From positions 32,001-96,000 of IMG/VR virus record IMGVR_UViG_3300017821_000056: a DNA stretch of 64,000 bases; one strand, 5' to 3'. Source of the DNA: a virus (taxonomy: Duplodnaviria; Caudoviricetes). The number at the start of each line of letters is the position of its first letter. The stretch's first letter is position 1. The notes under the pieces were generated by a model, which saw nothing but the letters and a program-made list of their open reading frames with translations, ran no database searches and had not been told where the DNA came from. This document shows, in pieces, positions 3,151-62,066 of this stretch. The position numbers were made by a program, and so were the translations under genes.

Positions 3151-3543
3151 GTGAAGGACCTGATCGCGTTCCTGGGTGCCCGGCTGGATGAGACTGCGGC
3201 GCGGGCGTGGGCTGTCCATGACGTGGAGCGGTGCGATGCCCTCTTGTACGAGGAGGATATGGGGGCTGCTGCCGCGCGCACCCCGGAGTGCGATTGCGGC
3301 TGCTCGGCCCGCGTGCTCCGTGGGGTGGGGGCTATGCGGGAGCTGATCACTTACGCTCTGGAGAACGCCGCGATGATCGACGGCGAGTGGGGCGACTGCC
3401 ATGAGGCTGCGGAGATCGCTAGCGGGCTGTGCGCGGATCATGGCGTGAAGGCTGCGGGCAGGGGCCTGGGGCTGCTCGCCGCGATCTGGCGGGATCATCC
3501 GGATTTCCGCCAGGAGTGGGCTCCCTCGGGCGGGGCTGTGTTA
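3151..3543 (+). CDS. DUF6221-like protein, apparently ending at an in-frame TTA
   Basis: LIAFLGARLDE...LLAAIWRDHPDFRQEWAP family-like ends; TTA 3541 followed by the promoter of the next gene. Confidence 0.7.
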
Positions 3544-3552
3544 CGGTCCCGC

Positions 3553-3589
3553 TTGCCACCCCGCTACCTGTCCGCTACACTGTCCGCTA
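3553..3589 (+). promoter_or_regulatory. leaderless promoter with three CCGCTA repeats
   Basis: TTGCCA-17-TACACT-7-ATG. Confidence 0.75.
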
Positions 3590-3960
3590 TGAACTCTGTG
3601 AAGCTGCCCCCCACCTCCGTAAATCTGGCCCCGGAGGAGAAAGCCAGGGTGAAGGCCCTGGGCGTGCCGCTGCGTACCGTGATCCTGACGGGGCTGGATG
3701 TCCTGGAAAGGGAACGGGCCGGTTCCGGTGAGGCTGCCGCGTCCGTTTACGCGGATCAGGCGGCGATGGTGCGGGCGATGGTCGCGGCGGAAGTGGACCG
3801 CAGGCTCCGGGAATGTGAGAGCGGCGCCGGGGGGGAGAAGGGGCTGCGGACTGCGCGGAAGCGGGCCGCCGCCCCGGTGAGGCACGCGGTGCCCGCGGCG
3901 GCATCCTCCGGTGATCCTGTTCCCGTCAGGTTCCAGCCGGGTACGGAGCCGGCGAGATGA
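3589..3960 (+). CDS. putative RHH-like transcriptional regulator
   Basis: PTSVNLAPEEKARVKALGVPLRTVILTGLDVLE; has its own promoter. Confidence 0.6.
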   Translation: MNSVKLPPTSVNLAPEEKARVKALGVPLRTVILTGLDVLERERAGSGEAAASVYADQAAMVRAMVAAEVDRRLRECESGAGGEKGLRTARKRAAAPVRHAVPAAASSGDPVPVRFQPGTEPAR

Positions 3961-4163
3961 GAGCGCCGGGCATGTACGCCTCCGAGGTGTGGCGCGACTA
4001 CCGCCGTGGCGCGAACGCCGTCGAGGCGGCGCTGATCGATCTCCAGGGGCAGCATGGCCTCACCGACCTGGAGATGGTCACGGCCCTGGAGGACTACCAG
4101 CGGACGCTTCTCGGGCACATGCTGAAGAAGCAGCACGCGCGCAAGCAGGGCCGGGCGTCATGA
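3957..4163 (+). CDS. hypothetical protein
   Basis: ATGA-coupled on both sides. Confidence 0.7.
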   Translation: MRAPGMYASEVWRDYRRGANAVEAALIDLQGQHGLTDLEMVTALEDYQRTLLGHMLKKQHARKQGRAS

Positions 4164-4429
4164 ACGACTACCTCGCGGTCGCGCAGTACTTCAACGACCG
4201 CCGCACTGCCCATGAGTTCGCCGTTGCCGCTAACTGGCGCTGTGCCATCTGCGGACGGAAGATCAGAACCGGGCAGCCCTGGACGAGCCTCCTCCCGTCG
4301 TGGGCTCCTGCTCACGGTTCCTGCGTCCCGTCCTCGTCGATGCACGACCTCCGGGAAACCTGGGGCGAGCCTGCATACGACCGGTGGCTGTGGTCCCCGT
4401 TCCTGCCCGACCTGCGGGCGGCGTCATGA
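4160..4429 (+). CDS. Zn-finger hypothetical protein
   Basis: CAICGRKI...HGSC; ATGA overlap. Confidence 0.7.
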   Translation: MNDYLAVAQYFNDRRTAHEFAVAANWRCAICGRKIRTGQPWTSLLPSWAPAHGSCVPSSSMHDLRETWGEPAYDRWLWSPFLPDLRAAS

Positions 4430-4560
4430 GCGGCGAGGACCCCAGCTTCCCGGTGCCGGAGGACGAGCAGCCTGCGCTGTTCCCGGAGGGGTTCTCCCCT
4501 GCGGAGGAACTCGCCGTGCTCCGGGCTGAGATACGGCTGGGCAGGCAGGGAACGCCGTGA
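4426..4560 (+). CDS. small hypothetical protein
   Basis: ATGA/GTGA overlaps. Confidence 0.6.
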   Translation: MSGEDPSFPVPEDEQPALFPEGFSPAEELAVLRAEIRLGRQGTP

Positions 4561-11296: not shown

Positions 11297-14200
11297 GTGA
11301 GCCGCACCTCCGGCGCTCTCGCCGCCCTCAAGGCCGTTCCCGGCGGTGCCCGGTACACCCCGGCCCCCCAGTCCGGCGGGTGGGGCGCGATCAGCCCGGT
11401 AGCGGCCAACGCCCAGTTCGGCAACCCGTACGCGGCGCAGTACGGCTACGGCCCGTTCCTGCCGCGGCCCTCCAGGACGTTCACCGACGGCGCGTTCGGG
11501 CCGATGGCACCGATCCAGCCCGCGCCCGTCGACGAGCCGCCACCCGGCGGCCAGTTCCCCGACCCCCGCTGGTGGCAGTACCCCGTCGGCTGGAACCTGC
11601 CCACCCAGCCCGGTGCCGAAGGCCTGAAACTGGCGTCCTTCCAGCAGCTTTACACGCTGGCCAGCAAGTACAGCGTGGCACGGGCCTGCATCGAGCTCCG
11701 CAAGGAGGAGATCCGCAGCCTGGAATGGGAGATCCAGCTCACCACCCAGGCCGCCAAGGCATACCAGGGCGATGCCAAGGCCATGCGGGACTTCGGGGAA
11801 CGCGCCGCTGAGGCGACGAGGTTCTTCAGGAACCCGGACCCGGACTTCTGGAACTTCGGCAGCTTCATCGATGCCGTCCTCGAAGAGATCTTCGTGTACG
11901 ACGCGCTCGCGCTGGTGTTCCGGCCCAAGTACGGGAAGGGACTCGGCCGGGGGCTGCTCGGCTCCGACCTGGACTCCATCCGCCTGGTTTCAGGTCCGAC
12001 CGTGAGACCTTTGCTCGACATGCACGGCGGCAGGCCCCGCCCCCCGGCGCCGGCTTACCAGCAGTTCCTGTTCGGGGTTCCCCGCAGCGACTACCAGGCC
12101 ATCATCGCGGGCACGGACATCGACGACTACGGCCTCGCCGGGGCTGAGGTCAACACTTTCCGCGCGGACACGATGCTGTACGCGCCGCTGCTGGCACGCC
12201 GGGAAAGCCCCTACGGCTTCCCTCCCGTGGAACGGGCCCTCCTGCCGATCATCTCCGGGCTGCAGAAGCAGGAGTTCCAGCTCAGCTACTTCACCGAGGG
12301 CACCGTCCCGGCGGTGTACATCTCGCCGGGCGACGCGAACATGACCCCGACGCAGATCCGCGAGCTCCAGGACGCCCTGAACGGGGTAGCCTCGGACCCG
12401 GCCTACCACCTGAAGGTCATCGTCCTGCCGCCGGGCAGCAAGGTTGACCCGCAGCGGCCTGTGGACCTGTCGGACGGCTTCGACCTGCTCGTTCAGACGC
12501 AGGTCGCCATGGAGTTCGACGTGATGCCCGATGAGATCGGCCTCCTGCCGAACATCGCCGGGGCGGGCCCGTCCGCCGGCGCGTCCTCGTCGGGGGTGCG
12601 GCTGGGCTCGGCGGCGGCACGGAACATCAAGGACCGCAAGTCGTCCAAGCCTCTGCTGATGATGCTGTGCGACATCGCGGACTACGCCTTGCAGGGGATC
12701 TGCGGGCAGCAGGACATGCAGTTCCGGTTCGAGGGGCTGCAGGCCGAGGACGACAAGCAGGCCCTCGTGGACCGGGGCGTGCAGGGCATCCAGAACGGCC
12801 TGTACTCCATCGACGAGGTGCGCGGCTGGCTGGACCTGCCCCCGTGGGGACTCCCGGAGACATCGGAGCCGGTGGTGTTCACCGCGCAGGGCCCGGTGCC
12901 GTTCAGCATGGCCCCGGAGCTGATCCGCGCCGCGATCACGGGGAGTACGCCGCCGGGGCAAGGGACGAACTCGGGGCAGCGGTCGCCGTCGTCGCGGTCG
13001 AGGACGAGCCAGCCGAGCGTGCGGCGCGGCGGCCAGACCAAGCCGAACGGCAGTCACCCCGCGCCGGTAGCGGACCACCGGGAGGCCCCGCTCACGCCGG
13101 GGCACGCCGCCGCGGCCGGGGCCATCCAGTCCCCGACGCCCCGCACGGGCGGCACGACAAGCCGCTCGAGCGTGGCGGGGTCACGGAAGAAGGCTGTCGA
13201 CGCGGAACTCGGCGCCCTCGCCCGGCACCTGCGCAAGGGCCGGCTCATCTCCACGTGGGTCGCCGAGCACATCCCGGAACGGGCACTGGGGATGATCGCC
13301 GAGGACATCGCCAAGGGCGTGCTCATCGACACGGCGGTGGAACGAGCCGGGGATGTCTGCCTGAAGGATGATTGGGCGCATGGTTCATCCCGCGACAGCG
13401 CTCATGATCCCGATAGCGGTACTTGGGTCTCAGGCGCTGATCCTGCTGGTGCGGCTTGGCTTGTGGCTGCTGAAGAGGCGCAGGTCCACAAGGCGAGCGT
13501 TACGCACTGGCCCGGCTGGGAGCGGGACCTCGGCCTCGTCGGCGCCTACAAGAACCTCATCGGGCAGGCTTTCCATGACGCTGAGGCTAGAGGCTCAGCG
13601 TTGCGCAGGAAAGCCGCCACGGGGGCCATGTTCGTCTCCAACGGCACCTTGCGGGACCTGATCTCCGGTGAGGTGCGGGACGTGTTCAGCACCGTCCTCA
13701 CGCCCATGTGGACTGAGGCGTGGCACCTCGGCTACACCGCAGCGAAATCCCTCGTCACCGGGGAACCTGCCGACTTCGCGGCCAGGACGGACTCCGATCA
13801 CCTGCGCGGATTCATCGGCAGCGAGGAGGAGCACTGGCTCGGGCAGATCTCCCGCACCGGGCTGGGGAACAACTCCGCGCGGTCAGAAATGATCGCCCGG
13901 ACCGAGGTCGCGCGGGCCATCAACTCGGCGGCGATCCAGTGCTACCGGGATCACGGGGTGCAGTACAAGCACCTGCTCCTGTCGCCGGGAGCGTGTGACA
14001 TCTGCGAGGATGTGGCGGACGACGGGGATATTGCCCTGGACGCCCCGTTCTCAAACGGCGGCGTGCTGGGCCTCCAGCATCCGGGCTGCAGGTGCGTGCC
14101 CGCAGCGGCCGGGATCAACGTCGAGCCGCCCCTAGCGGACCTCGGCAAGTCGGCAGCCGCCGAGGACGACTCGCGCCTGTGCTGGCTGCTGCTGCGCGCC

Positions 14201-15862
14201 CGCGACGAGGACGGCAAGTACAGGTTCCTGCTGCAGCAGCGCCCCGACGGCACGTGGGGGATGCCCGGCGGCAAGCCCCACGTAGGCGAGGACTCGTGGG
14301 CCGGGGCTCTGCGGGAGACAGCCGAGGAGATCGGGCAGTTCCCCGCGCCCCGGATCGCCGGCACGTTCCACCACGTGGAGGACGACGGCACGACGCGGGT
14401 GTACCTGTGGCTGTGCGACGTCCCGTACTTCCATCCGGCGCTGGACGGGTCCACCCCGGAGGAAACCCGGGGGGCGGCCTGGTTCCGCCGCAAGGAGATC
14501 GCCGGCCTGGACCTGGCCCCGAAGTTCCGCGATGACTGGGAGCACGGGATCAGCCTGCGGGAGCACGTCACCAAGGCGCTCCAGCGGATGGTGAACGAGA
14601 ACGGGGAGGAACTGGTCCTCACGGACGCCTCACAGCGCCTCCAGGCGGTCGGCAGCCGCTGGCCATATCCGCACCGGGCCGACGGGACGGAATGGCCTGA
14701 CGCCGGCCCTGGGGCCGTTCCCGGAGCATCTGCGGGTGATGAGCCCCCCGGCCATATAAACGACATGGCCGCGCCGGAACCCCACGGCCCCGTAGAGCCG
14801 CGCGGCGGCGATGACGGGAAGTACCCGCGCAGGCGGGTGAGGAACCGGCCCGCGTCCCGGTTCCCGGACCAGGGCGGCCAGGATGATGAGGCGTGGCCGC
14901 AGCCGCAGGCCACGCTCACGCCCGGCATGACCACTGTCGGGGCACCCAAGAGCGGCGGGAACGACTCCGGCCATCCTGTCGTCGGTGCCTATCAGCCACA
15001 GCCGCTGAAGCCCATGAAGCCTCACGCGGTCGAGCCTGAGACGGTCGATCCTGCTGATGAGGTCGAGCGGTGGTCACCGGGCGATGACTCGGATGTCGCC
15101 CCGGCAGTCAAGGGCGCGCAGCACGTCACAGACGCGAACCCGGTCGAGTGGCGGCATGTGTATGCCCAGCTGGAAGCCAACTTCCCGGACTCGGCGCTGG
15201 AATGGGTGAAGCACTCGACGTGGGTCGGCCCGGTGAACGTGCCGTGGTCCCGCATTGATGATGATGACATCGGTTCGTGGGCTGCGAGTCACCAGCCCGA
15301 GGCAGTGACCCGGTTCGCCCGTGAGATCGCCAGGGGCGGTGCGCATACCAACCCGTCCATCCTGTTCCACCAGGCGAACCACTCCGACGGCCGGGAGAAG
15401 ATCGCCGACGGCCATCACCGGGCCATGGCCCGGCATTTCAAGCTCGGCAAGCCGGTCCTCGCCTACGTGGGCACGGTCCCGGCGCGGTGGATGCCGCGGG
15501 CGCTCGAGACGCACAGCAGTCAATTGCATTCGGGCGAGGACCCCGCCAACAAGTCCGCGCAGACCCCCGTCGTCAGCACCGTGCACCACCCGCTCGGCAG
15601 CGAAGGATTGTGGCACACCCCGTCCAAGAAGGTGCCCGAGCTGCAGCAATTGCCGGCCTACGTGCAGAACACGGCACGGGCGCTCATGCGCGATCAGGGC
15701 ATGGAGGAGTCGCAGGCCATCGCCACGGCGGTCAACGCGGTCAAGGAGTGGGCCGCCGGGCACGCCTTCGGCGGGAAGGTCCCCGTCACGCCAGAAGTCC
15801 AGCAGGCAGCGCAGCGCGCCTTGGATGAGTGGGAGCACCTGAAGGAGACGCACCACCCGTGA
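11297..15862 (+). CDS. portal protein fused to MuF, Nudix, ParB/Srx-like and C-terminal domains
   Basis: Portal (YGFPPVERAL, YFTEGTVP, SIDEVR); MuF IARTEVARA...HPGCRC; Nudix GG.....E....ALRETAEEIG; IADGHHR. Confidence 0.9.
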   Translation: MSRTSGALAALKAVPGGARYTPAPQSGGWGAISPVAANAQFGNPYAAQYGYGPFLPRPSRTFTDGAFGPMAPIQPAPVDEPPPGGQFPDPRWWQYPVGWNLPTQPGAEGLKLASFQQLYTLASKYSVARACIELRKEEIRSLEWEIQLTTQAAKAYQGDAKAMRDFGERAAEATRFFRNPDPDFWNFGSFIDAVLEEIFVYDALALVFRPKYGKGLGRGLLGSDLDSIRLVSGPTVRPLLDMHGGRPRPPAPAYQQFLFGVPRSDYQAIIAGTDIDDYGLAGAEVNTFRADTMLYAPLLARRESPYGFPPVERALLPIISGLQKQEFQLSYFTEGTVPAVYISPGDANMTPTQIRELQDALNGVASDPAYHLKVIVLPPGSKVDPQRPVDLSDGFDLLVQTQVAMEFDVMPDEIGLLPNIAGAGPSAGASSSGVRLGSAAARNIKDRKSSKPLLMMLCDIADYALQGICGQQDMQFRFEGLQAEDDKQALVDRGVQGIQNGLYSIDEVRGWLDLPPWGLPETSEPVVFTAQGPVPFSMAPELIRAAITGSTPPGQGTNSGQRSPSSRSRTSQPSVRRGGQTKPNGSHPAPVADHREAPLTPGHAAAAGAIQSPTPRTGGTTSRSSVAGSRKKAVDAELGALARHLRKGRLISTWVAEHIPERALGMIAEDIAKGVLIDTAVERAGDVCLKDDWAHGSSRDSAHDPDSGTWVSGADPAGAAWLVAAEEAQVHKASVTHWPGWERDLGLVGAYKNLIGQAFHDAEARGSALRRKAATGAMFVSNGTLRDLISGEVRDVFSTVLTPMWTEAWHLGYTAAKSLVTGEPADFAARTDSDHLRGFIGSEEEHWLGQISRTGLGNNSARSEMIARTEVARAINSAAIQCYRDHGVQYKHLLLSPGACDICEDVADDGDIALDAPFSNGGVLGLQHPGCRCVPAAAGINVEPPLADLGKSAAAEDDSRLCWLLLRARDEDGKYRFLLQQRPDGTWGMPGGKPHVGEDSWAGALRETAEEIGQFPAPRIAGTFHHVEDDGTTRVYLWLCDVPYFHPALDGSTPEETRGAAWFRRKEIAGLDLAPKFRDDWEHGISLREHVTKALQRMVNENGEELVLTDASQRLQAVGSRWPYPHRADGTEWPDAGPGAVPGASAGDEPPGHINDMAAPEPHGPVEPRGGDDGKYPRRRVRNRPASRFPDQGGQDDEAWPQPQATLTPGMTTVGAPKSGGNDSGHPVVGAYQPQPLKPMKPHAVEPETVDPADEVERWSPGDDSDVAPAVKGAQHVTDANPVEWRHVYAQLEANFPDSALEWVKHSTWVGPVNVPWSRIDDDDIGSWAASHQPEAVTRFAREIARGGAHTNPSILFHQANHSDGREKIADGHHRAMARHFKLGKPVLAYVGTVPARWMPRALETHSSQLHSGEDPANKSAQTPVVSTVHHPLGSEGLWHTPSKKVPELQQLPAYVQNTARALMRDQGMEESQAIATAVNAVKEWAAGHAFGGKVPVTPEVQQAAQRALDEWEHLKETHHP
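13368..13502 (+). CDS. overprinted single-TM peptide in +1 frame of portal linker, ending at TTA
   Basis: ALMIPIAVLGSQALILLVRLGLWLLKRRR; codon bias favours this frame locally. Confidence 0.45.
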
Positions 15863-32262: not shown

Positions 32263-33263
32263 ATGTCGACGCCGCTGCCCCTGGGTCTTACTCCGTATAT
32301 ATCTCCTACGACCCTGCTCACGGCGCCGACATTATCGAAATTGGAATTGATTTTAGTTCGATACCTTCGGGCGACTACACCCAGCCTACGGAAAACTGGG
32401 CCGAGTGGTGGAACATGACGGCCAGGGCCACGTCGCGTGTCGACGGCTATTGTTCCCAGGTCTTGCGTGCCACCATCGACACTGAGCCGCTGCACGGCCC
32501 GGACTACCGGGTCACCGTGGGCCCCGCTGCGGGCGGATCGTACCCGACGCCGTACTGGGGGAACTCCGGGGCGCAGAACGCGCGGCTGATCCTGTCCCGG
32601 TGGCCGGTGCTGCAGGTGACGAACGTGGCGACCTGCCCGAACTCGCTGTGGCCAAGGTCGTGGACGAACCTGCCGGCCGGGTACTACGAGCCCGAGGTGC
32701 CCACTCTCGGCGTGTACGGCTCCATCTCCCCGGCCGGGTCCGCTGACGGGGGGCAGGCGATCCTGGTCGGCGGCGGGTACATCGACTGGTCTTACGGGCG
32801 TAACGGGTGGGCGATCCTGGTCACCTATATCAACGGGTGGCCGCACTGCTCCCTCACCTCGGCTGTGGCGGCAGGGGCCACGTCGCTGCCGGTGAACGAC
32901 TGCACCGGGTGGGGGATAACGGACTACAACAGCGTCTTCACCGGGGCGACCGGCCGGATCGTGGACTCGGGCGCCCAGGAAGCCATCCACGTCACGGCCA
33001 CGTCGGCGGCGTCGGGGCCGGGGAACCTGACCCTCTCCTCGCCGCTGAATTTCGCCCACACCGCGCAGACGCTTGTCACTACCTTGCCGGCGTCGATCGA
33101 GCAGGCGTGCATCCTGTTCTGCGTCGCGGAGGCCCTGACGAGGGGGGCGACGACGACGACGATCCATGACATCGGCGGGCACGCGCAGTCCACCGGGGGG
33201 GACGTGGCAGGGCTGACAGCGGAGGCCGAGCTCTTGTGCCATCCGTTCCGCAGAACTGTATAA
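32263..33263 (+). CDS. head-tail adaptor/completion protein split by an 11-nt TTA-led gap (32332-32342)
   Basis: RBS+ATG 32263 gives PYISPTTLLTAPT; other frame continues GIDFSSIP...RATSRVDGYC...Y.NGW...LPASIEQAC. Confidence 0.75.
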
Positions 33264-34516: not shown

Positions 34517-34978
34517 ATGTCCTGCGGGAAGACGGTCACCCGGAGGCAGGCCAAAGCCCGCACCAGTTCCGCCCGCGCACACCAGGCCAGGCGAGCCGCT
34601 ACTCCCTCCGCGAAAGCGGCGAAGGCCCGGTACCGGCAGCAGTCCTACGCCGCGTTCGTCCGCCAGCTGAGGCACTACTACCACGTCCGCCACCTCCAGC
34701 ACGTCGCCCACCAGGCCGCTGCGGCAGCGCAGGCCCCGCACCCGGCTAAGCGCCGGGCCGCCCGCGCAGCAGCCCGGCACGGCGTCACGTCGCGGATCCG
34801 GTGCAAGCAGAAGACCCGCAAGGCCGCGGTCGTCCGCAAGGGGCCGGCGAAGAAGAAGACGGCCCCGGCGAAGTCCAGGGCTGTCAAGGCGGCGGCAGGG
34901 AGAAGGGCAGCCCTTCCCTCTGCCGGGGTGCGCGCGGCACGGTCGGCACGGTCGGCGCGGGCGAGGCGGGGACGTTAG
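34517..34978 (+). CDS. very basic Arg/Lys/Ala-rich protein
   Basis: Own GGAGG RBS; no acidic residues seen in 153 aa. Confidence 0.7.
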   Translation: MSCGKTVTRRQAKARTSSARAHQARRAATPSAKAAKARYRQQSYAAFVRQLRHYYHVRHLQHVAHQAAAAAQAPHPAKRRAARAAARHGVTSRIRCKQKTRKAAVVRKGPAKKKTAPAKSRAVKAAAGRRAALPSAGVRAARSARSARARRGR

Positions 34979-39220: not shown

Positions 39221-40435
39221 ATGGCTAGGCTTATGTGGCACTCATGTGCTCCGTGGTCTGCCAGTTTAAAATGCGGATACGGAACCCAGACCGCGATCTG
39301 GACCCGGAAGCTCAAGGAAATGGGCCATGAGGTCCTGATCAGCAATTTCTGGGGACTGCATGGCTGTTCCCTGGAATGGAACGGCATCCCGGTGCTGCCC
39401 GCGTTCGGCGGGTCGTACTGCACCCCGTCGCTCGCCCAGCATGCGAAGCACGCGGACCCGGACCTGATCATCTGCCTGGGTGACATCTGGCCGATGGACC
39501 CGTCGCTGATGGCCGGGCTGCCTTTGGCGCACTGGCTGCCGTCGGACTGCCGGCCGATGTCGATGGCGGACCGGGAGAAGGCGGAGGCGGCGGGGCCGCA
39601 GCTGATCGCGATGTCCCGGTTCGGGGAGGCCCGGTTCCGGGCGGCCGGGTTCCGGGATGTCCGGTACGTGCCGCACGGCATCGACCTGGAGGCGTTCAGG
39701 CCGCCGGAGGACCGGGACGCGCTCCGGAAGGCGGCGGGGCTGGACGGGGCGTTCGTGGTGGGCGCGAACATGGCCAACAATGACGCGATCCGCAAGGCAT
39801 TGCCCGAGATCATGCTGGCGTTCGCCCGGTTCCACTCCGACCATCCGGATGCGCTGCTGGCCCTGCACACGGGGGTGCACCAGGACGGCGGCCAGGACCT
39901 GGAGGCGATCGCGGAGAACCTGGGGATCACGGACCGGTGCAAGGTGGTGGACCAGTACCGGTACACGTCCGGGTTCGTCACCGAGGAGGACCTGCGCGGC
40001 TGGTACGGGACGGTTGACGTGCTGTGCGCGGCGTCGTACGCGGAGGGGTTCGGGCTGCCGATCGTGGAAGCCCAGGCCGTCGGCTGCCCGGTGATCACGA
40101 CGGCGTGCTCGAGCATGGAAGAGCTTAACCCGCTGGGGATCTCGGTGGACGGCTCGCCATTTTGGAATGGCGTCCATCGCGCCTGGTGGGTCCGCCCCGA
40201 CGTCCGCGGGCTTTACGAGGCGTTCTGCCTGGCATACGAAAACCGCGACAGCGTGGACCGGGGGAAGCTGCGGGAGTTCGCGGCCGGCAACTACGAGGTG
40301 GGCCACGTGGCGGAAACGTACATGAAGCCCGTCGTCGATGAGCTTCTGGAAGTTATGGCACAGCGGCGCGGGAAGCGCCCGGAACTACAGGAAGCAGGCG
40401 CGGATGCGGATAACGCTGCCGTCGAAGCAGGCTGA
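39221..40435 (+). CDS. GT-B (family 4-like) glycosyltransferase with 9-nt TTA-led insert
   Basis: GYGTQ, VPHGID, EGFGLPIVEAQAVG. Confidence 0.9.
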   Translation: MARLMWHSCAPWSASLKCGYGTQTAIWTRKLKEMGHEVLISNFWGLHGCSLEWNGIPVLPAFGGSYCTPSLAQHAKHADPDLIICLGDIWPMDPSLMAGLPLAHWLPSDCRPMSMADREKAEAAGPQLIAMSRFGEARFRAAGFRDVRYVPHGIDLEAFRPPEDRDALRKAAGLDGAFVVGANMANNDAIRKALPEIMLAFARFHSDHPDALLALHTGVHQDGGQDLEAIAENLGITDRCKVVDQYRYTSGFVTEEDLRGWYGTVDVLCAASYAEGFGLPIVEAQAVGCPVITTACSSMEELNPLGISVDGSPFWNGVHRAWWVRPDVRGLYEAFCLAYENRDSVDRGKLREFAAGNYEVGHVAETYMKPVVDELLEVMAQRRGKRPELQEAGADADNAAVEAG

Positions 40436-41011: not shown

Positions 41012-41032
41012 GGACCGGGCCGGGGTGATCGC

Positions 41033-41515
41033 ATGGCCGTGACCCCGGAGCAGAACCTGGCGCATCTGGAGCAGGTGCGGCGCAGGGCCCGGTACGGTGC
41101 TACGGCGGCAGCGACGGCGATGGCGAAGTACGTCCGGGACCGGGCGCGCGACGATACCTTGCAGCGGACCCGGCACCAGAAAGGCGAATGGTACCGGCAG
41201 CGGCCCGGCGAGCCGCCCGCGCGGGCGTCGGGGGCGCTGATCCGGGACATGTTCTACAAGCCGGCGTCCGGGGGCCTGCGGGCCACGGCGCTGGCGGGGA
41301 ACAAGTCCGAGTACGGGCGGATCCTCGAGTTCGGGTGCGTGATCGTCCCGGTGAACAGGAAGTTCATGCACTGGACGGACTCCGGCGGGTCCTGGTATCA
41401 CACGATGCTGGTCGTCCCCGCGCACCCGTACCTGTCCACGACGACGGACGAGGCGATCGATGACGGGGAGCTTCAGCGGGCTGCGGTAGAGGCGTTCCGG
41501 GATTACGACCCCTGA
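41033..41515 (+). CDS. HK97 gp10-like neck/tail completion protein
   Basis: PGEPPARASGAL, YGRILEFG, PAHPYL. Confidence 0.8.
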   Translation: MAVTPEQNLAHLEQVRRRARYGATAAATAMAKYVRDRARDDTLQRTRHQKGEWYRQRPGEPPARASGALIRDMFYKPASGGLRATALAGNKSEYGRILEFGCVIVPVNRKFMHWTDSGGSWYHTMLVVPAHPYLSTTTDEAIDDGELQRAAVEAFRDYDP

Positions 41516-41557
41516 CCCTGACCTGCTCCTGCCACGGTGCCCGGATGGGGGTGAGCC

Positions 41558-44500: not shown

Positions 44501-46156
44501 ATCCCGGCGCAGCTGGAGACGAAGCTCGGCGCGCAGGATCTCCAGCAGCTGAAAGCATCAGGGACGGTCACGTGGACGAATAAGACCACCCCGCTTCCCT
44601 CTCAGCATGCAGGCGGCACGGTTGCGTGGCATAACAGTTTCACGATCCCCGCTGTCCCGACATTGCATGGCCAGATCATCTACACGACGACAATCGTCGG
44701 CGGCGTGGCGACTATCGGCACGACGAATGCCCAGGGATTCCAGAATGTCTCCCCGATAAAAGCCGCCCAGCGCGGCTTCAAGGTCCCCGGCTTCGGCGGC
44801 GGGGACATCTGGGGCCCGGCGATGCTCGAACCCGGTGAGCTGGTCGTCCCGAAGGGCATGGTGGCGGCCGGGGCGGTCGATCACCTGCGGGGGAAGATCC
44901 CCGGGTTCCAGGGCGGGGGGATGGTCCCGTACTTTCCCGGGGTGAGCGTGGCGATCCGCGCATCCATGCAGGATGTCGCGGCCGAGCTGGTCAGCTTCAT
45001 CCAGCAGGCCATGTCGTCGGTGACCGGAACCCTGCGTTCCGGCGGTGGTTACATGCAGCCTTACGGCGGGCTGCAGCCGTCCATGGTCCGCCCGCCGCAT
45101 ACCGCCGGTGGGTCGCCTGGTTCTATCCCGGTGCATGTGGCGAGTGTCGCGCCTGCTGCTGCTGCCGCCATGAGCGGCGGTGCTCCCGGTGCGCCGCTGC
45201 CGATGCCCGCGGCGGCGCAGAAAGTCCTCGACGCCTTCGAGAAAACCTTCAAGAGCATGGGTGACCCGTGGGGGAAACTCGCGTCGGAAATCCTCACCGG
45301 GCTTGAAGCAGCGGTGAAAGACCCGATGAAGGAGACAGCGGCAGCAGCGCAGAAACTCGTTAACCAGGTCACGACGGAGATTAATTTCGGGAAGAACCTG
45401 GCAGCGCAGACCCTGCAGGGCCTGAATCTCGCAGGGATGACCGTCCCCGCCCCGGGGAGCGCTATCCAGATGGTGCAGCCGGGTCCGGGGGCTAAAGGGT
45501 TCAACGCTGCCTCGTACAACGCGTACGTTCAGGCGTTCGCCGGTAACACCCTGCCTGGTGACGTGAACGCTGCGGCGCAGCCGCAGTCGGTGCAGCAGCA
45601 GATGCAGTCCTACCTGAAGTCCATCCAGGCGTTCTCCAAGGACATCGGGGAACTGTCCAAGGGCGGGCTGAGCAAGGCCGTCTTGCAGCAGCTGCTGGCT
45701 GCCGGGCCGGCACAGGGGGATGCGCTGGCGCAGTCGATCATGAGCGGCCCCGGGGGGATCAAGGCGGTCAACCAGCTGTACCAGCAGATCCAGAAGGCAT
45801 CGACGGGTCTGGGTGTCGCGGGGATGGAAGGCGTGTACGGGGCGCCGAAACAGCTGGCAGGCGCGATCAGCCAGGTGCATGGGAAGAAAGTGGATATTCA
45901 GACGAGCGCCCCTACGGGTCCGGTGCTGGCGTTGCAGTCCGCGATCAACGCCCTGCACGGCAAGACGGTGACCATCAAGGTGGTCATCGACACCGGCACC
46001 GGCGGCGGCGGCAAAGCCAGCGGTGCCCCTGTCTCCCTCGGGGACCTGTCCAAGGCGGACATCAACCACATCACCGCCCAGGTCCAGGCGTCACTCCTGC
46101 AGCAGGCCAAGCGCAACCGCCGGACCGGCCTCACCCTCCCGGGCTACGGGTCCTGA
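41558..46156 (+). CDS. tape measure protein
   Basis: 1532 aa Ala/Gly/Gln-rich helical protein after chaperone; VPGFGGGD...LEPGELVV motif. Confidence 0.9.
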   Translation: MPRGLPSVEQQFSAETSGYDAGIARMVEDNRRLIASIGDVQKQVGEMNRLLGSLPDRKAIRISVEGADSAIAEIAKVKAALDGLGDKSIAIGGSEAMVRELRDISASMDMATSSMGRMEEHLTVISRSVQDSSADLMMQTQMLRDNADAHNAAATAVAALATARGGAGGGSGWGAAAAGAAAGAAAGGGGGGGGGAPGFVPWAGGGWQAVRFWGMMGAEVASTVVPALVAAGSAALVGAQGFEQLQNRAQAIYTTSEALGASLNQTFGSFVVGGKYGNALQQAQNMAQGAVYGIAGAGINLLQGGAGQGLLNMGVQTTDMISRSAAQLVLSAQQRGLGAQLTGLVGGGPRYLQQFGQVGANLGNILLGVAPNLPGVGKDLLSTLVGGTGVLAAGAENIPSPLLKGFFTYEAASRWLPALLGGQGLIGRALGLRGVGGLGGLISKGGEALFTRGMGGALGDVGLGAMGFGDTLAALTGPEVAIPLALMQAEFAGLNMLPRGAGGAAAGQIAGLRAGITAGGFTGAWQPLAQAITKMSGFQAGLPDYVRMAAPTQQMLASREGAGLQAAYATSPQVLTGQAMQTWTQQLGDLVASGPQLVSALQKAGLNTSNMADAFMIAQNAGLDLSHSFKANGQLTDVATQQLKQYTAAIAPMTRSTGAFGAAVSAQYIMGQPAVQNVAKVNQAMDSMTQIMTGGPLGQAGLTGALASIQTLGTTLSSLAAAPPGAAGLAKANTAVVAQALSNVITPGGAAAWQAFAGSPGGVPGVIPSTQAIMDQLRTALAMGAIGISGSVAGGAPTPGGAAGLAGFNILQALPVARQSPAALASLMQQGAQMGVTPYYDPTKSLAQNYAAAATAAGKVADNAKTANIATQGQVVNLSRMPQLAQQFVGGLNAQTLANQLADASKAVGQISTQAGKGLVDKGALTQLVGDFKTAGIQGAGNIKAALDSALTTAGVSQTMRLKIEAEVTPHVDTAAVKAVKIPAQLETKLGAQDLQQLKASGTVTWTNKTTPLPSQHAGGTVAWHNSFTIPAVPTLHGQIIYTTTIVGGVATIGTTNAQGFQNVSPIKAAQRGFKVPGFGGGDIWGPAMLEPGELVVPKGMVAAGAVDHLRGKIPGFQGGGMVPYFPGVSVAIRASMQDVAAELVSFIQQAMSSVTGTLRSGGGYMQPYGGLQPSMVRPPHTAGGSPGSIPVHVASVAPAAAAAMSGGAPGAPLPMPAAAQKVLDAFEKTFKSMGDPWGKLASEILTGLEAAVKDPMKETAAAAQKLVNQVTTEINFGKNLAAQTLQGLNLAGMTVPAPGSAIQMVQPGPGAKGFNAASYNAYVQAFAGNTLPGDVNAAAQPQSVQQQMQSYLKSIQAFSKDIGELSKGGLSKAVLQQLLAAGPAQGDALAQSIMSGPGGIKAVNQLYQQIQKASTGLGVAGMEGVYGAPKQLAGAISQVHGKKVDIQTSAPTGPVLALQSAINALHGKTVTIKVVIDTGTGGGGKASGAPVSLGDLSKADINHITAQVQASLLQQAKRNRRTGLTLPGYGS

Positions 46157-46200
46157 CTCCTCCTTCCCTCTCGCTGCTGCCTTAAGGCGGTGCCATCACC

Positions 46201-46389
46201 ATGCCCGAACCCGCCCCCCTGACCGTCACCTGCGACTCGTGCGGGGCCTCGGCCAGGACCTTTAACGGCTCCGACCCGGACGGTGCCCTGGAGTGCGGCT
46301 GCTGCCCGGAGGACCACAGCCATGCGGGGCTCGGCTGCCGCACCGTCACCATCTCGGCCACGGCGTACCTGACCGGCGAAGCCAGCTGA
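46201..46389 (+). CDS. small Cys/His protein
   Basis: CDSC...CGCCPEDHSH; TAAGGCGGTG RBS. Confidence 0.7.
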   Translation: MPEPAPLTVTCDSCGASARTFNGSDPDGALECGCCPEDHSHAGLGCRTVTISATAYLTGEAS

Positions 46390-46433
46390 CTTCCCCGGAC
46401 ACCCCGGGCTTGACCCCGAAGGAGTGAGCAGCC

Positions 46434-47021
46434 ATCAGTACCTACACCGGCACCCAGACCGAGGTGATCTTCGCCAACGGGTTCGCCTACCCCGCGGCAG
46501 CCGCCTCATCGAGCTCGGCCCAGTCGCTGATGACCGGGGCGACCGGGAAGTACCAGCAGCCGGTGTACTGGGGCGGGTTCTGGCAGCAAGGCCGGTCCAA
46601 CCAGACATCCACCATCGACTTCTCCGTCATCCTGGCGGGCCAGGGATCAGCGACCACCGCGATCTTCACCGCCGGGCTGAACACCGCGTCGAACAACATC
46701 TCCGGCAGCACCCTGGTCGCCTGCAACGCGTTCACGTGCACCTCTTTTTCCTCGGGGACGGTCGCCGGGCATATCGAGATCTCCAACTTCGGCTCCGGGT
46801 ACGGCACGTCCTCGGTGGCCACGAACCTGTGGTCGACGATCTCGCTGATCGCCAACAACGGGTCCACCACGGGCGGGGTGGTGGCGGCGGGAGGGCCGAC
46901 GCAGCTGGCCACGATCGACTTCTCGGTGAACCAGTGGCTGTACCTGACGGTCACGTTCTCCACGTCCAGCTCGAGCAATTCGGCGACGCTCCAGCAGCTG
47001 ATCGTGAGAGGTGACAACTAG
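46434..47021 (+). CDS. minor tail protein with probable ATC start
   Basis: GAAGGAG-9nt-ATC AGT ACC TAC ACC; GTG 46464 lacks a properly spaced RBS. Confidence 0.7.
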   Translation: MSTYTGTQTEVIFANGFAYPAAAASSSSAQSLMTGATGKYQQPVYWGGFWQQGRSNQTSTIDFSVILAGQGSATTAIFTAGLNTASNNISGSTLVACNAFTCTSFSSGTVAGHIEISNFGSGYGTSSVATNLWSTISLIANNGSTTGGVVAAGGPTQLATIDFSVNQWLYLTVTFSTSSSSNSATLQQLIVRGDN

Positions 47022-47052
47022 GTGGCCTTTCTGCAGCTAAGGCGGTGATTTA

Positions 47053-47448
47053 ATGGCTATGTTCGACCAGACCGACGCCACGAACCTGCTAGCTGCCATC
47101 CTCAATAACACCAGCTACACCACGGTGGCCGCGACGCACATCCGCCTCGGCACGAATGCGCCCACGGCCGGCGCCAATATGACCGAGCTCGGCGGCGGCT
47201 CCGGGTACACGACGGGCGGGGCGTCCATCTCCTGGAACACCGTGTCGGCGGCGGCCACGTCGAACTCGGGCACCGTGTCGTGGACGAACTCGGGGTCTGG
47301 CTGGACCCTGGTGGGGCTGGAGATCTGGGACACGGCGGGGACGCCGCTGAGGCACCTGTTCGGGACGTGGACGGGGCAGCCGGTCAGCGTGGCGACGGGC
47401 AATACGTTCCAGGTCGCTGCCGCTGGCATCGCCGTGTCGCTCGTGTTA
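47053..47448 (+). CDS. minor tail protein, apparently ending at TTA
   Basis: ELGGGSGY...IWDTAG...VATGNTFQVAAAGIAVSLV family-like end, then TTA. Confidence 0.75.
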
Positions 47449-47507
47449 CGGAAAGTAGTTGCGCTAACTGCTGACTGTAACTTAGCGTGCGTCCGAGAGG
47501 GTGACCG

Positions 47508-50500
47508 ATGCCCTCAGTGACGTTTACGTCCAGCGGCACATGGACCTCCGTCGCCACCTCGGTTGACTGCCAGGCCTGGGGCGAGGGCGGCAAAGGGGCC
47601 AGCGGCGTATCCGGCAGCAGCGGCCACGGCGGAGGCGGAGGCGGCGGCGGCGCCTACGCTGAGGAAACCGCCCTCGCCGTCACGAACGGCAGCAACTACA
47701 CCTACACGATCGGCGCCGGCGGCACCGCGACCAACACTGTCTTCCCCGGAGACAGCGTTACCGTCACCGCTAAATTCGGGGCGTCCACCACCACGCAGAG
47801 CGGCGCCGCCGGCGGCGCGGCCGGTTCCAACGGCATCGCGTTCGCGGGAGGCGCTGGTGCCGCCGGGCAGTCCGGGACGGGCTCCAAGGAGGGCGGCGGC
47901 GGCGGCGGCGCAGCAGGAGCCAGCGGCGCCGGCGGCAATGCGCCCGGGCCCGCTGGCGGGACCGGGACCGGGGGCGGCGGCAGCGGAGGTGCCGGCGGGG
48001 GGACCGGCGGCACGGGAACCGTCCCTGGCGGCGGCGGCGGAGGCGGCGGGAAAGCTAACACCTTCTCCGACCCCGGCGGCAACGGCGCCGGCGGGCAGAT
48101 CACCCTCATCTACACCTCCTCGGTCAGCGGCACCGCGACCCTCGCCGGCGCGGGCACGCTCACGGCGGCGGGCACGTCCGCCACGCCCGGCAGCCCGGTC
48201 GTCCCGCAGCAGAACCCGGGCGCGACGTGGCTGCGCCGGTTCGGCGGCTACCGGAACATCAGGCTCCCGTGGAACCAGCTGCAGACCATCGCGGGCACCG
48301 CCACGCTGGCCGGCGCCGGCACCCTGGCGGCGTTCGGGTCAGCCCCCGCGCCTGCCGTGGTCAACCAGTGGGCGAACTCCTACGGCCAGGGCACCGCCTT
48401 CACCAGCATCACCTCGGCCCTGCAGTCCTGCGTCGTGCCGCTGACGCCCGCCTACTCCGCAGGCCCCGGGTCGGGGTACCCGACGGCGGGGAACTGGCTG
48501 TTCGCCATCGCCTCCTGGACGCAGGACCCGCAGATCATCAACGTCCATGTCGGGACCGGGGACGACATCCACTCATACTGGCGGGAATACCCGGCCGCCG
48601 GATCCGGCGGGTACACCCGCACCGCCATCTCCTACACCCCGAACATCGCCCGCCAGGTCGGCAACGTGTACGTCGCGCCGGACATGGAGATCGCGGCGAT
48701 CAACGTCCTGGTCGTGGAGGTCGCCGGCCTCGGCCAGTGGGACACCGTAGTCGGCACGGACATCGCCTACGACGCGGCGTCCACGTCGATCTCCCTGTCC
48801 CAGGCTGCCGGGGCGCAGGCGACGTTCTTCATCGGCGCCGTCGGCGGGGACAACGCGTCCTCCGGGCAGGCGTTCCTGCCGTCCGGGTGGATGGGCCTGG
48901 CGACCCAGACCCAGACCAACGGGGCCAATAACCTCGCGGACAACATCCTCACCGCCGCCTACCTGCCGTCCTCCAATTCCGCGCAGAACGTCTCCGGGTC
49001 GGCGGTGACGGCGGAGAACCTGTCCGGGTTCATGCTCGCCGTCCTGGTCTCCGGGAACAGCCCCATCCCCGCCGGGCACAACCCGGACTGGCCGTACGTC
49101 ATCTTCGAAGCCGGGTTCGGCGCCGGGTACAACACCCCGGACTCGCAGGTCACCTGGACCGACATCACCCAGAACCTGTGGGACTGGAACGAGACCACCG
49201 GGATCCAGTACCAGCTCGGGCAGCTGCAGGCGACCAACCTGACCATGCACCTGGACGACCTCAGCGGCTACCTGATCCCCTCCAACGCCAGTTCGCCGTA
49301 CTACCCGGATGTCCAGCCGGGGACTCCGGTGAGGATCCGGGCCGCGCTCGGCACGATGGCGGGAGTCAGCTACAACCGCTGGTACATCATCCAGCGGAAC
49401 GCCACCCAGTGGGGCGAGGGGATCGACGAGGTCTTCCGCCGCTACTGCCCTGTCTCGGGAACCGACCTGTGGGCGGCGCTGTCCTCGACCCCGCCGACGT
49501 TCTACCGGTCGGAGATCTACGAGGACAAGCCGTACGCGTGGTGGCCGTGCGATGACCAGCCGGGGACGGCGGGCGTGCTCCCCACTCAGATGCTGAACGC
49601 CGCGATCGGGAATACGAATACGCTGAACATCAAGCTGTCTCCCTCCGGGGGGGTCCTCGAACCGTATTACGCTAAAAACGGGGCGGATACTTCTCACGCC
49701 ACCGTCGGGGGCTCTGGTGCCGCCGCCAACACCAGCAGTGCTTATCCGCCGGGTATCGCCGTTTACGCGGTCGGCGCGGATGCCGGATGGATGCCGGGAG
49801 ATCCGCAGAGTTCTGTCGCGTCCCTGGGTACCGGGAACCCGGTCACGTCTACTCCCGGGTCTGCCGCGTGGCAGGCATCCGGGCAGGCTGGGAACACTGG
49901 TTCATTCGGCTGGTACCTGATCTGCAATGATAACAGCTTCCCGGCGCTATCGGGCGGCGTCACGGTCGAGATCTGGTTTAATGCGGCATATTACCTGACC
50001 AGCGCCGGATGGTCAGTCGGCGTCCCGATCGGGCAGCCCGGCGGTGAATCAGAGTATCCTATTACCGCACAGCCGTATAATTCTCCCATAACTATATGGG
50101 AGATCGCGACTAACTCCGCGCCGACCTGCCTTCTCCAGCTGGATACATCCGGGCACCTGAATCTCATCACGGCAGGCACCAGTCACAGTATTTACACCGC
50201 CTCGGATCTGCGCAGCAATTCCTGGCATATGGTCACGGTCACGCTGACGACGACCGCATGGCAGGTTTGGCTGGATGGCGGGGCGAACGCCAACGTCTCG
50301 GGAACCGCATCGATGGCTTCCGCGTGGACATATTTCATCGCCAACGGCGACTTCGGTTCGTCGGGGGGCGGCAGTCCCGCGTCACTGGTACACGGCGGGA
50401 ACATCTCACTGTCCCATATCGCGATCTACCCGTGCGTGCTCCCGTATTACCGGGTACTGGATCATTACTGGGCGGCTATCACCGCGTTCGGGCAGCTGGC

Positions 50501-59362: not shown

Positions 59363-59956
59363 ATGACGGTTTACACGCTGTTCGGCCAGACGGGCGGCGG
59401 GTCGGCCAGCGGAGATAACGCCTCGTACACGCTGGGAGTGCAGTTCACCGTCTCATCGGTGGTCACTCTCACCGGTATCTGGTGGTACTCTGCGGCCACT
59501 CAGAATGTCCTGCCGGCTGCCTGCTGTATCTTCGCGGAGACGTCCCCTGGAAGCGGCTCAATCGTCTCCGGCACGCAGAATAACTCCCCGTCGTGGTCAG
59601 GGGCGGCGGGATCGGGATGGGTCAGGTGCTCTTATTCCGCACCCGCCCTGTCTCCCGGGAACACATACAAGGCCTGCGTCCTGGGCTCGGGCGGCGGCAC
59701 GCCCGGCTGGTATTCCGCGACGTCCCACTACTGGGACACCGGCTCAGGTTCGGGCGGCCTGGCCAGCGGGCCTCTCAGCGCCCCGGGCAACGCGGGCGGC
59801 GACGGCGGCCAGGATACATTCGTCACCCCGGCCGCAGCGCTGACCTACCCGGCCAGCTCGTTCAACGCGGCGAACTACTGGGTCGATGTTGAGGTCACCG
59901 CATCCGGCGTCACGCCTGCCGGGCCTGCTTATACCGCGCTCATGAGCGGCATGTTA
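59363..59956 (+). CDS. DUF4082-like carbohydrate-binding virion protein, apparently ending at TTA
   Basis: YTLGVQF...TGIWWY...NYWVDV; TTA overlaps next ATG as TTATG. Confidence 0.75.
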
Positions 59957-61050
59957 TGTCTGCCATCAACATTACCTACAGTAACTATTACCCGTCGCCG
60001 GTAAGCGCGGACCCGCAGCCGGCCGGCAACCCGTCAGGCGGCCCGTGGACGCTCGCCTTCAGGGACGAGTTCAGCGACCCGCTGGGTACGGGCCAGCCGG
60101 ATTGGACGGTCTGGGCCGATCATTTCATCGACGGGGAAAACGACCGGGGCTACAACAACAGCAACGAGATCGAATGGTACGACCATTCGCACACCGGGGA
60201 GATCATCTCCGGCGGCATCCTGTCCCTCAAGGCGATCAACCGGGGCAGTGTCGCCGCGGTGCAGGCTATCGACCCGCAATGCCCTGATCCGCTGCCCAAC
60301 GGGCAGCATGCCACGTACACCTCCGGGATGATCCAGTCGTTCCGCGCCTTCAACTTCACCTACGGCTACGTCGAATCCCGCATCCAGAACCCGAGCGGCG
60401 CGGTCACCGGCTGGTGGCCCGCGTTCTGGATGGTCACCTCCGACAACGCCTGGCCCCCTGAGATCGACATCGACGAGATGGACGTCCCGGGCGTCATCGA
60501 CAACAACTACATCAACACCGCGGGCAGCTCGCAGACGTCCACCTACTCCGAGGACACGTCCTGGCACGTGTACGGGATGCGCCTGGACGCCTCCCATGTG
60601 ACGTTCTTCCGTGACGGCGTGGAGACCTACCAGGCTAACTACGACGGCAACGCCTACCCGTGGTTCATCATCTTCAATGCCGCTGTCAACACCAGCGCAA
60701 CCGGTGCCGGGTTCCCGTGCCAGTGGAACATCGATTACGTGCGGGCCTGGACGGTGCAGGGCGTCCCCGGCCAGCCGGTCATCACCTCCGTCACCCCGTC
60801 CACGGGCATCCCCACGGCAGGCACCCTGCAGGTCGCGTTCAGCACAGTCTCCGGCGCGGCGAACTACCGGGCCACCGCCGGCTGGGTGACCGGCTACCCC
60901 GGCAGCCATTCGTTCACCGCGTCCGGGACTGGCAGCCCGCTCACGATCAGCGGCCTGGTCAACGGCGATCAGTACATGGTCACCGTCGGCGCGTCAAATG
61001 CCACCGGGTGGGGTATCGAGTCGCTTCCCGTCCCGGTGCCGCCGGCTTAA
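59956..61050 (+). CDS. GH16 glycoside hydrolase with Fn3 domain
   Basis: WTLAFRDEF, YGYVE, WPAFWM, EIDIDE, WHVYG, IDYVRAW; Fn3 C-terminus. Confidence 0.88.
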   Translation: MSAINITYSNYYPSPVSADPQPAGNPSGGPWTLAFRDEFSDPLGTGQPDWTVWADHFIDGENDRGYNNSNEIEWYDHSHTGEIISGGILSLKAINRGSVAAVQAIDPQCPDPLPNGQHATYTSGMIQSFRAFNFTYGYVESRIQNPSGAVTGWWPAFWMVTSDNAWPPEIDIDEMDVPGVIDNNYINTAGSSQTSTYSEDTSWHVYGMRLDASHVTFFRDGVETYQANYDGNAYPWFIIFNAAVNTSATGAGFPCQWNIDYVRAWTVQGVPGQPVITSVTPSTGIPTAGTLQVAFSTVSGAANYRATAGWVTGYPGSHSFTASGTGSPLTISGLVNGDQYMVTVGASNATGWGIESLPVPVPPA

Positions 61051-61084
61051 ACGGGGACCGGTGCCGTGAGGAAGGCGGGCTAGC

Positions 61085-61810
61085 GTGGCAGCGCCGACCC
61101 TCATCCAGTACGCCGAGACCAGCTGGACCACCCCCGATACTGCGAAAACCACTGGCAGTATCACCTGGCTAGCCGGGGATGTCATCGTCGCCGTCGCCGG
61201 GGACGAGAGCCAGCGGACCATCCCCACGCCGACGTTCGCCGGCGGCACGTTCGTCGCGATCACTGGCGCGGCCTGCACTAACGCCAGCAACTGCGCCGCC
61301 AACGCCTGGTCCTGCACCCCGGTCTCGGGGGGGTCCGGCGCGGTCAGCATCGCGCTCACGCCGGACATCGACGGTCTCGGCGTCTGGGTGTGGCGGAATA
61401 GCGGCGGCATCGGGAATGTCGGCTCATCCACTTCGACAGCCAACAACAACCTGACCCAGAGCCTCATCCGGTCCGGTAATAATTCCTGCGTCGTGGGCGG
61501 CTGTTTCGACTGGAGCGCGACCGCGACCACGGGTTACGGCTGGACGCCGACTGTGGCAAATGACCGGCAGCACGGCCAGGTCAGCGGCCAGTATTCCTAT
61601 TATGTCGCGGACTGGGGTGATCAGGGCAGCGCGGGTACCACCTCCTACGGCCTCACCGGGATTACCGCCGGACCGTTCGCCCGGCTGTTCGTGGAAATCC
61701 TGGGCAAAGCTGCCGCCGCCGTCAGCAAGGCGGGGTCTCCCGTGAAAGCGAAACTTCCCTGGCAGCATGACCTGACCCTTGAACCTCCCGGTCTCATTTA
61801 CGTCAATTAA
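61085..61810 (+). CDS. minor tail/fibre-associated protein
   Basis: AGDVIVAVA beta-sandwich type; RBS present. Confidence 0.65.
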   Translation: MAAPTLIQYAETSWTTPDTAKTTGSITWLAGDVIVAVAGDESQRTIPTPTFAGGTFVAITGAACTNASNCAANAWSCTPVSGGSGAVSIALTPDIDGLGVWVWRNSGGIGNVGSSTSTANNNLTQSLIRSGNNSCVVGGCFDWSATATTGYGWTPTVANDRQHGQVSGQYSYYVADWGDQGSAGTTSYGLTGITAGPFARLFVEILGKAAAAVSKAGSPVKAKLPWQHDLTLEPPGLIYVN

Positions 61811-61820
61811 GGGGGTGCCC

Positions 61821-62066
61821 GTGCACGGCATCTCCCTGCGTCCCCGCGCGAATATTCCCCAGCCCGTAAGGGGACGCTGCAGCAGCACGGCAAGCATTCC
61901 CGTGTGCAACCCGCGTAGGCGGATCGTGAAGCCGCTGCGGTGCAGGATCCGTGCCCGGCGGCAGCCCGCCGGGAGGGTGCACTCGAGGAAAGCTGCCAGG
62001 GCTGCCTGCCGTTGCATGCTGACGGCGAGGGAACCCGACCAGGAGGAAGATTTACTGCGCCCTTAG
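61821..62066 (+). CDS. basic protein with degenerate copies of the downstream repeat
   Basis: RANIPQPVRGRCSSTASIPVCNP; AAGGGGG RBS; TTA at 62052 four codons before TAG. Confidence 0.5.
   Translation: MHGISLRPRANIPQPVRGRCSSTASIPVCNPRRRIVKPLRCRIRARRQPAGRVHSRKAARAACRCMLTAREPDQEEDLLRP

Follow-up and report, generated by a model that had tools for sequence, protein, structure and literature searches.

The 64,000-nt stretch of DNA analysed here (the window) corresponds to bases 32001–96000 of a 128,210-bp virus record (IMGVR_UViG_3300017821_000056, hereafter G0), the genome of a tailed phage that has direct terminal repeats and is rated 100% complete. It has a GC content of 68.7%, and its products include a major head protein, a tape measure protein, and large tail proteins. 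We describe five genes in the window that have an in-frame TTA, and no TAA, TAG, or TGA, at their natural ends (3541–3543, 28644–28646, 34493–34495, 47446–47448, and 59954–59956). Genes were called with a model of codon usage and of GC content at the third codon position (GC3) trained on G0 itself, and sites outside the window are given in window-relative coordinates (e.g., −27650 and 64691). No cultured relatives of G0 were found in 50,697 phage records, in which the best match was 26% identity over the major head protein, and many uncultured relatives are present in IMG/VR. Six of these were compared whole or in large part, namely G1 (135 kb), G2 (87 kb), G4 (130 kb, complete), G5 (115 kb), G6 (82 kb), and G7 (36 kb), with GC contents of 58–71% (58% in G1), together with 79 loci around the head gene; loci are given as L-numbers.

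The genes and other features at these sites are listed in Table 1. In the DUF6221 gene, the Pfam profile ends 5 residues upstream of the TTA at 3541. An exhaustive search of 1.8 billion proteins with the uninterrupted frame gave matches of which the best 150 all cover either residues up to 129 or residues 147–268, and none covers both. The DUF6221 homologues finish at query residues 122–129 with a C-terminus of their own, and the gene that follows in the same frame, whose ATG at 3589 is query residue 147, belongs to a different protein family. The original prediction, which was made from the letters of the window alone, had placed a promoter directly after 3541, and a consensus match is indeed present there. 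The glycosyltransferase (GT) gene was missed in the first gene calling because its frame continues through the convergent gene. Its end is placed at residue 232 by 16 of 25 relatives, and exact alignment puts TAG in G1 and TAA in G2 at the codon of 28644; its length up to the TTA, 232 amino acids (aa) versus 235 aa for its paralogue, was correctly noted earlier. The convergent DUF6221 gene stands between the GT gene and the gene at 29189, which are adjacent in G1 and G2, and the boundary of this insertion coincides exactly with the last sense codon of the GT gene.

At 34493, 17 homologues (104–127 aa; 111–127 aa in the ten that were aligned) end no more than 3 residues away, and the closest of them, L124 (83% identity), has TGA. 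The GGAGG and ATG said to follow this site are both present (the former within GGGAGG), and the product of the resulting candidate gene has no family match in Pfam. At 47446, the same codon after ...SLV is TAG, TGA, or TAA in three viral and six metagenome relatives. The homologues at 59954 are distant only, and the best of them, from G2, ends within one codon. The ending ...IAVSLV at 47446 and the TTATG at 59954 had both been read correctly. Judged from these alignments, the TTA end matches the stop of orthologues exactly at 28644, 47446, and 64691 (a site outside the window, where the codon aligned with it in the G4 orthologue is TGA), within 3 residues at 3541 and 34493, and within one codon at 59954. 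The five gene ends named in the original prediction are therefore borne out, since homologues either end there or carry TGA, TAA, or TAG.

Table 1 Genes and features at the TTA sites of the window
Feature	Position	Strand	Remarks
DUF6221 gene, 130 aa	3151..3543	+	Last codon TTA (3541–3543) in place of a stop; Pfam DUF6221 1–122 of 122 on residues 1–125
Promoter-like TTGCCA-17-TACACT	3553..3581	+	7 nt upstream of the next ATG; 1 versus 0.0 in shuffles; consensus match only
Separate downstream gene, 123 aa	3589..3960	+	Same frame as the DUF6221 gene; 112–131-aa proteins match query residues 147–268 from their own residue 1
Glycosyltransferase (GT) gene, 232 aa	27948..28646	+	Ends on TTA 28644–28646; GC3 frame changes strand at 28644
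Convergent DUF6221 gene, 178 aa	28644..29180	-	Its TAA is the TTA triplet of the GT gene on the other strand; GC at codon positions 1/2/3 fits the minus strand; Pfam DUF6221 E = 2.3e-19
TTA-led insert, 11 nt	32332..32342	+	Breaks the frame of a conserved virion gene (32263..33263); missing from the G1 orthologue (...APT-GID...)
Gene, 121 aa	34130..34495	+	Ends on TTA 34493–34495
Next open reading frame, candidate gene	34517..34978	+	Same frame; GGGAGG upstream; very basic Ala/Arg/Lys-rich predicted product
TTA-led in-frame insert TTAAAATGC, 9 nt	39266..39274	+	In the conserved N-terminal S-GYG motif of a glycosyltransferase (39221..40435)
Gp80-like tail-fibre-type gene, 129 aa	47059..47448	+	Ends on TTA 47446–47448; Pfam Gp80 7–127 of 128
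Tail after TTA 47446, through the first standard stop	47449..47520	+	GC3 0.48 versus 0.93 in the gene; codon log-odds −0.68; second in-frame TTA at 47482
DUF4082 gene (Pfam), 197 aa	59363..59956	+	Ends on TTA 59954–59956, overlapping the next start as TTATG
GH16-domain gene	59956..61050	+	Gene call and Pfam GH16; the A of its ATG is the last base of the TTA

Two weaker sites of the same prediction fall away. The TTA at 13500 does not share the frame of the real gene at 11297–15862, which encodes 1521 aa and has collinear orthologues, and the open reading frame (ORF) at 62052 is an Arg-rich junk translation with its TTA 4 codons upstream of a TAG. A local dip in GC3 is seen at 13380–13500 inside the 11297–15862 gene, with the frame unchanged, perhaps marking a linker or a sequence inserted recently.

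The triplets are truly in the DNA, because independent assemblies match the window letter for letter. Logan contigs of run X1, the probable source run, are an independent re-assembly at depth 12–15; they cover 28400–28759, 28789–41220, and 41406–47613 with 0 differences, and hence show TTA rather than TGA or TAA at 28644, 34493, and 47446, as well as both TTA-led inserts of Table 1. Low-depth pieces from a second study (X2) are also identical to the window, although their overlap with the TTA sites is not established.

Over the whole of G0, in-frame TTA makes up 9 of 34,879 called codons, where 57 are expected from positional composition. All nine are at ends and gene bodies contribute 0, with a single in-frame exception, the TTA of the 9-nt insert at 39266; TTA is common in the other two reading frames. 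Seven of the nine fall within the last 25 codons of an ORF, a region that holds 14% of all codons (7–26% for most other A/T-rich codons, 43% for AGA, and 32% for CCA), and the remaining two (3541 and 34493) lie between two coding stretches in one frame. The count by position thus gives no mid-domain TTA at background frequency, and a chance origin of the pattern is excluded.

When TTA is allowed as a stop, the 206 genes of G0 end on TGA (133), TAG (43), TAA (18), or TTA (12, approximately 6%). Besides the five in the window, TTA ends are found at −27650, −18299, 64691, 71466, 71467, 88159, and 93959. No homologues were found for the genes ended at 88159 and −18299 (ORFans). No sense codon other than TTA replaces a stop in G0, although a single step from the three stop codons offers 23 sense changes, of which TTA accounts for 2 only. 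Convergent pairs share TTA/TAA or TTAA. At 71466/71467, two convergent genes meet at TTAA (window-relative 71466–71469; G0 103466–103469; L126 7466–7469), and both are in frame with the TTA and not with the TAA one base over. TTA ends also overlap the following start codon more often than standard ends do (4 of 12 versus 8 of 194, Fisher p = 0.0026), the junctions being four TTATG, eight TGATG, and 0 TAATG. The TTATG at 64691 was rejected as a real start overlap, its ATG opening 6 codons only.

The sequence after the TTAs does not resemble coding sequence. Their tails score negatively for codon usage and have a GC3 of 0.27–0.50, except for the GT tail (0.68), which crosses a gene in antisense; at 59954, for example, GC3 is 0.27 and the codon log-odds −1.06. 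A further in-frame TTA is present in two of the tails (47482 and 59972). Five tails are 7–23 codons long, and five others run for 113–192 codons through other genes or antisense sequence. As a control, we examined eleven extensions of G0 proteins past the ends of their orthologues that begin with other codons; GC3 is 0.72–1.0 in ten of these and 0.53 in the one at 39320. These are ordinary C-terminal variation, since their composition is coding-normal. The next in-frame standard stop comes at a median of 29 codons after TTA and 33.5 codons after real stops (p = 0.58), a similarity of distribution that argues against selection for back-up stops. The tails are missing from homologues, which do not carry read-through extensions with ordinary Leu codons either. 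A slip of +1 onto a stop (UUA-R) was considered and rejected: a purine follows TTA only in the TTAA pair, and the +1-frame stops are 3 to 16 codons away. The original prediction had proposed UUA as a terminator or switch that yields an extended or fused protein when decoded. The terminator role is supported by the alignment with stops and by the non-coding tails, while the useful read-through product is not, as the tails bear no sign of use.

In-frame TTA is nearly missing from the six related genomes as well and is common in their other two frames; observed versus expected numbers are 1 versus 148 in G1, 1 versus 61 in G2, 1 versus 64 in G4, 3 versus 39 in G5, and 1 versus 31 in G6. Four of these genomes (G1, G2, G4, and G5; loci L011–L022 and L102–L114) have tRNA arrays of 35–42 genes that cover nearly all A-ending codons and include neither Leu(UAA) nor Leu(UAG). 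One G5 tRNA (loci L109–L114) is assigned the four-base anticodon tagg by ARAGORN, which may reflect a tRNA that reads quadruplets or an artefact of the prediction. G0 is without any tRNA gene and has the highest GC content among the complete genomes.

TTA is found at stop positions in about 4 genes of G5, one of them as TTATG, and in 2–3 genes of G7, one of which is aligned with stops in four homologues. It also ends a gene in L041 (TTATG) and the GT orthologue in L030. In L141 (595–1008, 56% GC), the Gp80-like gene ends on TTA, followed by 6 codons and TAG, and this end is, from the sequences compared, an independent event. When the codons opposite homologue stops were tallied automatically over the whole clade, TTA had the top rate (0.0054 versus 0.00006 overall) in spite of dilution by shadow ORFs. 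TTA is not consistently used as an end across the lineage, the exceptions being G1, G4, and the distant relatives. If UUA were a true fourth stop read by the release machinery of the host, a reading that we consider possible but rather unlikely, the clade would record a path from sense to stop, in which the codon would first have been purged with no tRNA provided for it (G1, G2, and G4) and then captured as a terminator (G0, G5, G7, and L141).

Two short TTA-led blocks interrupt conserved genes of G0 (Table 1). At 32332, the match in one frame (frame A) stops at the TTA and the match in another (frame B) restarts at GGA. Frame A of this gene then terminates at a TGA, which forms an ATGA overlap with the ATG at 32415 (region 32263–32418). 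Two coupled pieces, or else recoding, may thus account for the expression of the virion gene. The insert at 39266 has no counterpart in the orthologues of G1 and G2 or in the paralogue at 55363. In both inserts, the take-off codon differs from the landing codon (ACA/ATT at 32332 and AGT/TGC at 39266). A short UUA-led block within a conserved ORF, as in a coding gap, is found at these two sites only and not at the gene ends.

No machinery that could explain the TTA ends was found in the phage itself. Searches of G0 gave no tRNA or tmRNA genes and no RF-1 or PCRF domain, Pth, or SmpB, and no Rfam families were found within the window; a phage-borne tRNA-Leu(UAA), release factor, or rescue gene, suggested earlier as a place to look, is thus not encoded in the rest of the phage.

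We propose that translation of about 12 genes of G0, five of them in the window, most likely ends at TTA in practice, as indicated by the aligned stops and the composition of the tails. UUA would then not be decoded as leucine in the infected cell. Because it would not be read as Leu, a stop codon would be free to mutate to TTA, which is one base from TAA and TGA, and the protein would not be lengthened. As to how translation ends, the explanation that we favour, though we rate it slightly below an even chance, is a conditional stall. Charged host tRNA-Leu(UAA) would be scarce or missing, as it is in the vegetative hyphae of Streptomyces (bldA), the ribosome would halt at UUA with a completed chain, and host rescue or drop-off pathways would release that chain. 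The stop would be conditional, in that 12 proteins would gain junk tails or fusions if the tRNA appeared, and productive infection would thus be tied to the tRNA-poor state. The inserts at 32332 and 39266 would follow the same logic, and a stall unites them with the TTAs at gene ends. A bldA-type switch is thus a plausible candidate mechanism.

Several points weigh against this explanation. Stalling usually leads to tmRNA tagging and degradation and is a poor route to structural proteins. Among the gene ends of G0, TTA is almost on a par with TAA (12 versus 18), a ratio that an efficient stop would fit better than a stall. TTA ends 0 of 177 genes in G4 and at most 3 of 205 in G1, the latter in weak ORFs, where TAA ends 36 and 68 genes, respectively. 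As G1 and G4 avoid TTA yet hardly end genes on it, the host or the mechanism must differ within the clade. In the more distant relatives L087, L065, and L075, TTA stands at conserved Leu columns, so leucine is its ancestral meaning. The sole hints to the host are a 3-kb contig binned in a metagenome-assembled genome of Streptosporangiaceae and the actinomycete-linked DUF6221 family, and a Streptomyces host is therefore an assumption. G0 has no WhiB gene, and no host signal was obtained from Atlas.

The original prediction did not separate the stall from a true stop read by a release factor, which is an equally live reading. Here, UUA would be a genuine fourth stop recognized by an altered release factor of a host lineage that has lost tRNA-Leu(UAA), and the phage would follow the code of its host. 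The proportion of TTA to TAA, the lack of selection for back-up stops, and the presence of structural genes among those affected would all be expected of a true stop, as would the complete exclusion of TTA from ORFs. Different hosts would also easily explain why G0, G5, and G7 have TTA ends and G1 and G4 have none. On the other hand, the phage carries no release factor, TTA ends only about 6% of its genes, and in G1, despite a GC content of 58% and TAA at the ends of a third of the genes, TTA ends at most the 3 weak ORFs mentioned above. Moreover, we found no bacterial sense-to-stop code in the literature searched. In its full form, we regard this explanation as possible but rather unlikely.

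It is less probable still that TTA is read as leucine, perhaps slowly, and that the tails are made, either as tolerated loss of stops or as a pausing device that tunes the next start in TTATG. The proximity of TTA to TAA and TGA, the shortness of five of the tails, and the use of TTA as Leu by distant relatives are all in keeping with such a reading, and the four ends that overlap the next ATG recall the adpA UUA located 5 nt before a start (PMC10732093). However, decoding as leucine leaves it unexplained why all 12 replacements are the same codon; the five tails of 113–192 codons would cross other genes or antisense sequence, and the tails are non-coding in composition and hold more TTAs. TTA is not freely decodable, because it is still excluded from gene bodies.

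We consider it very unlikely that the TTAs open coding gaps that are bypassed or frameshifted, fusing neighbours such as DUF6221 with the next gene and DUF4082 with GH16. Such gaps have a precedent in phiHau3 (PMC10732093), two real TTA-led inserts occur in conserved genes of G0, and the codons before the TTAs at 59954 (ATG) and 88159 (CCG) recur 5 and 8 nt downstream, respectively, in the frame of the next gene. At the remaining TTATG sites, however, take-off and landing codons do not match, and the RNA structure at the 12 gene-end TTAs is no stronger than at standard stops, its minimum free energy being weaker if anything. The orthologues are separate genes with real stops, and no fused homologue was found; bypassing from any of the 12 gene-end TTAs would lead nowhere, as the orthologues end at these points.

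A sequencing or assembly error, or a defective genome with broken stops, is scarcely credible even for a metagenome assembly in which each TTA is one base from a stop, given the identical re-assembly across 28400–47613 and second-study pieces, the same pattern in the unrelated assemblies G5, G7, L041, and L141, and the restriction of the changes to stop positions and to one codon.

UUA is a stop codon in an organelle code (NCBI table 23, Thraustochytrium mitochondria), and to our knowledge a few organelle codes are the only ones for which TTA has been described as an end of translation. The literature searched gave no account of a phage or bacterium in which TTA takes the place of stop codons. 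As in table 23 organelles, TTA in G0 is not used at conserved sense positions and is found at the ends of genes whose relatives finish with standard stops; unlike them, G0 is a tailed bacterial phage in which approximately 6% of genes are affected, and its close relatives avoid TTA without ending genes on it. In the stop recoding known from phages, TAG or TGA is read as an amino acid. The consequence is similar in that annotation with table 11 is wrong, whereas the change in G0 would run the other way, turning a sense codon into a stop, and the phage encodes neither a suppressor tRNA nor a release factor.

The second group of related systems is that of Streptomyces and its phages. Streptomyces phage genomes are usually without UUA, whose sole reader, the bldA tRNA, is non-functional in vegetative hyphae (PMC10732093). 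This avoidance is matched in the clade of G0, whose ORFs contain almost no TTA and whose large tRNA sets lack a UUA reader. The special role of TTA may not reach beyond Streptomycineae (PMC4255298). UUA-led coding gaps that are candidates for translational bypassing are described in the terminase of the Streptomyces phage phiHau3 and in two prophages (PMC10732093 and reference 45 therein). The blocks in the phiHau3 terminase are 7–10 nt long and their bypassing is partly supported by experiment, and UUA was exchangeable for UAA as a slow codon in the recoding of phiHau3 (PMC10732093). The genome of G0 likewise is otherwise TTA-free and has short TTA-led blocks (11 and 9 nt) in conserved genes, and the slow, stop-like UUA that can be swapped with UAA resembles the TTA of G0; the mismatched take-off and landing codons of the G0 inserts and a host not known to be Streptomyces set the two apart. 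Ribosomes also pause at the UUA that lies 5–6 nt ahead of the adpA start in Streptomyces (PMC10732093). In this upstream ORF, as at the TTATG junctions, UUA at the 3′ end of a frame abuts the next start, while adpA has a standard stop two codons later and is a host regulatory leader, and in G0 full-length genes end on TTA. Streptomyces genes that depend on bldA differ in having their TTA biased to gene starts; in G0, TTA is at the stop position and is followed by tails without coding signal.

If TTA does end translation in G0, the change from sense to stop would reach beyond organelles, to phages and the bacteria that they infect, or an unreadable codon would have taken over the job of a stop. 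Annotation with table 11 would fuse or lengthen approximately 12 G0 proteins, such as those of the ORFs of 269, 425, and 282 aa that would really be 130, 232, and 121 aa, and small genes can be concealed by it as well. Should the stop depend on the tRNA, a dozen genes would carry a built-in sensor of host physiology, and the hypothesis developed for phiHau3 from 2013 to 2023 would become testable at many sites together.

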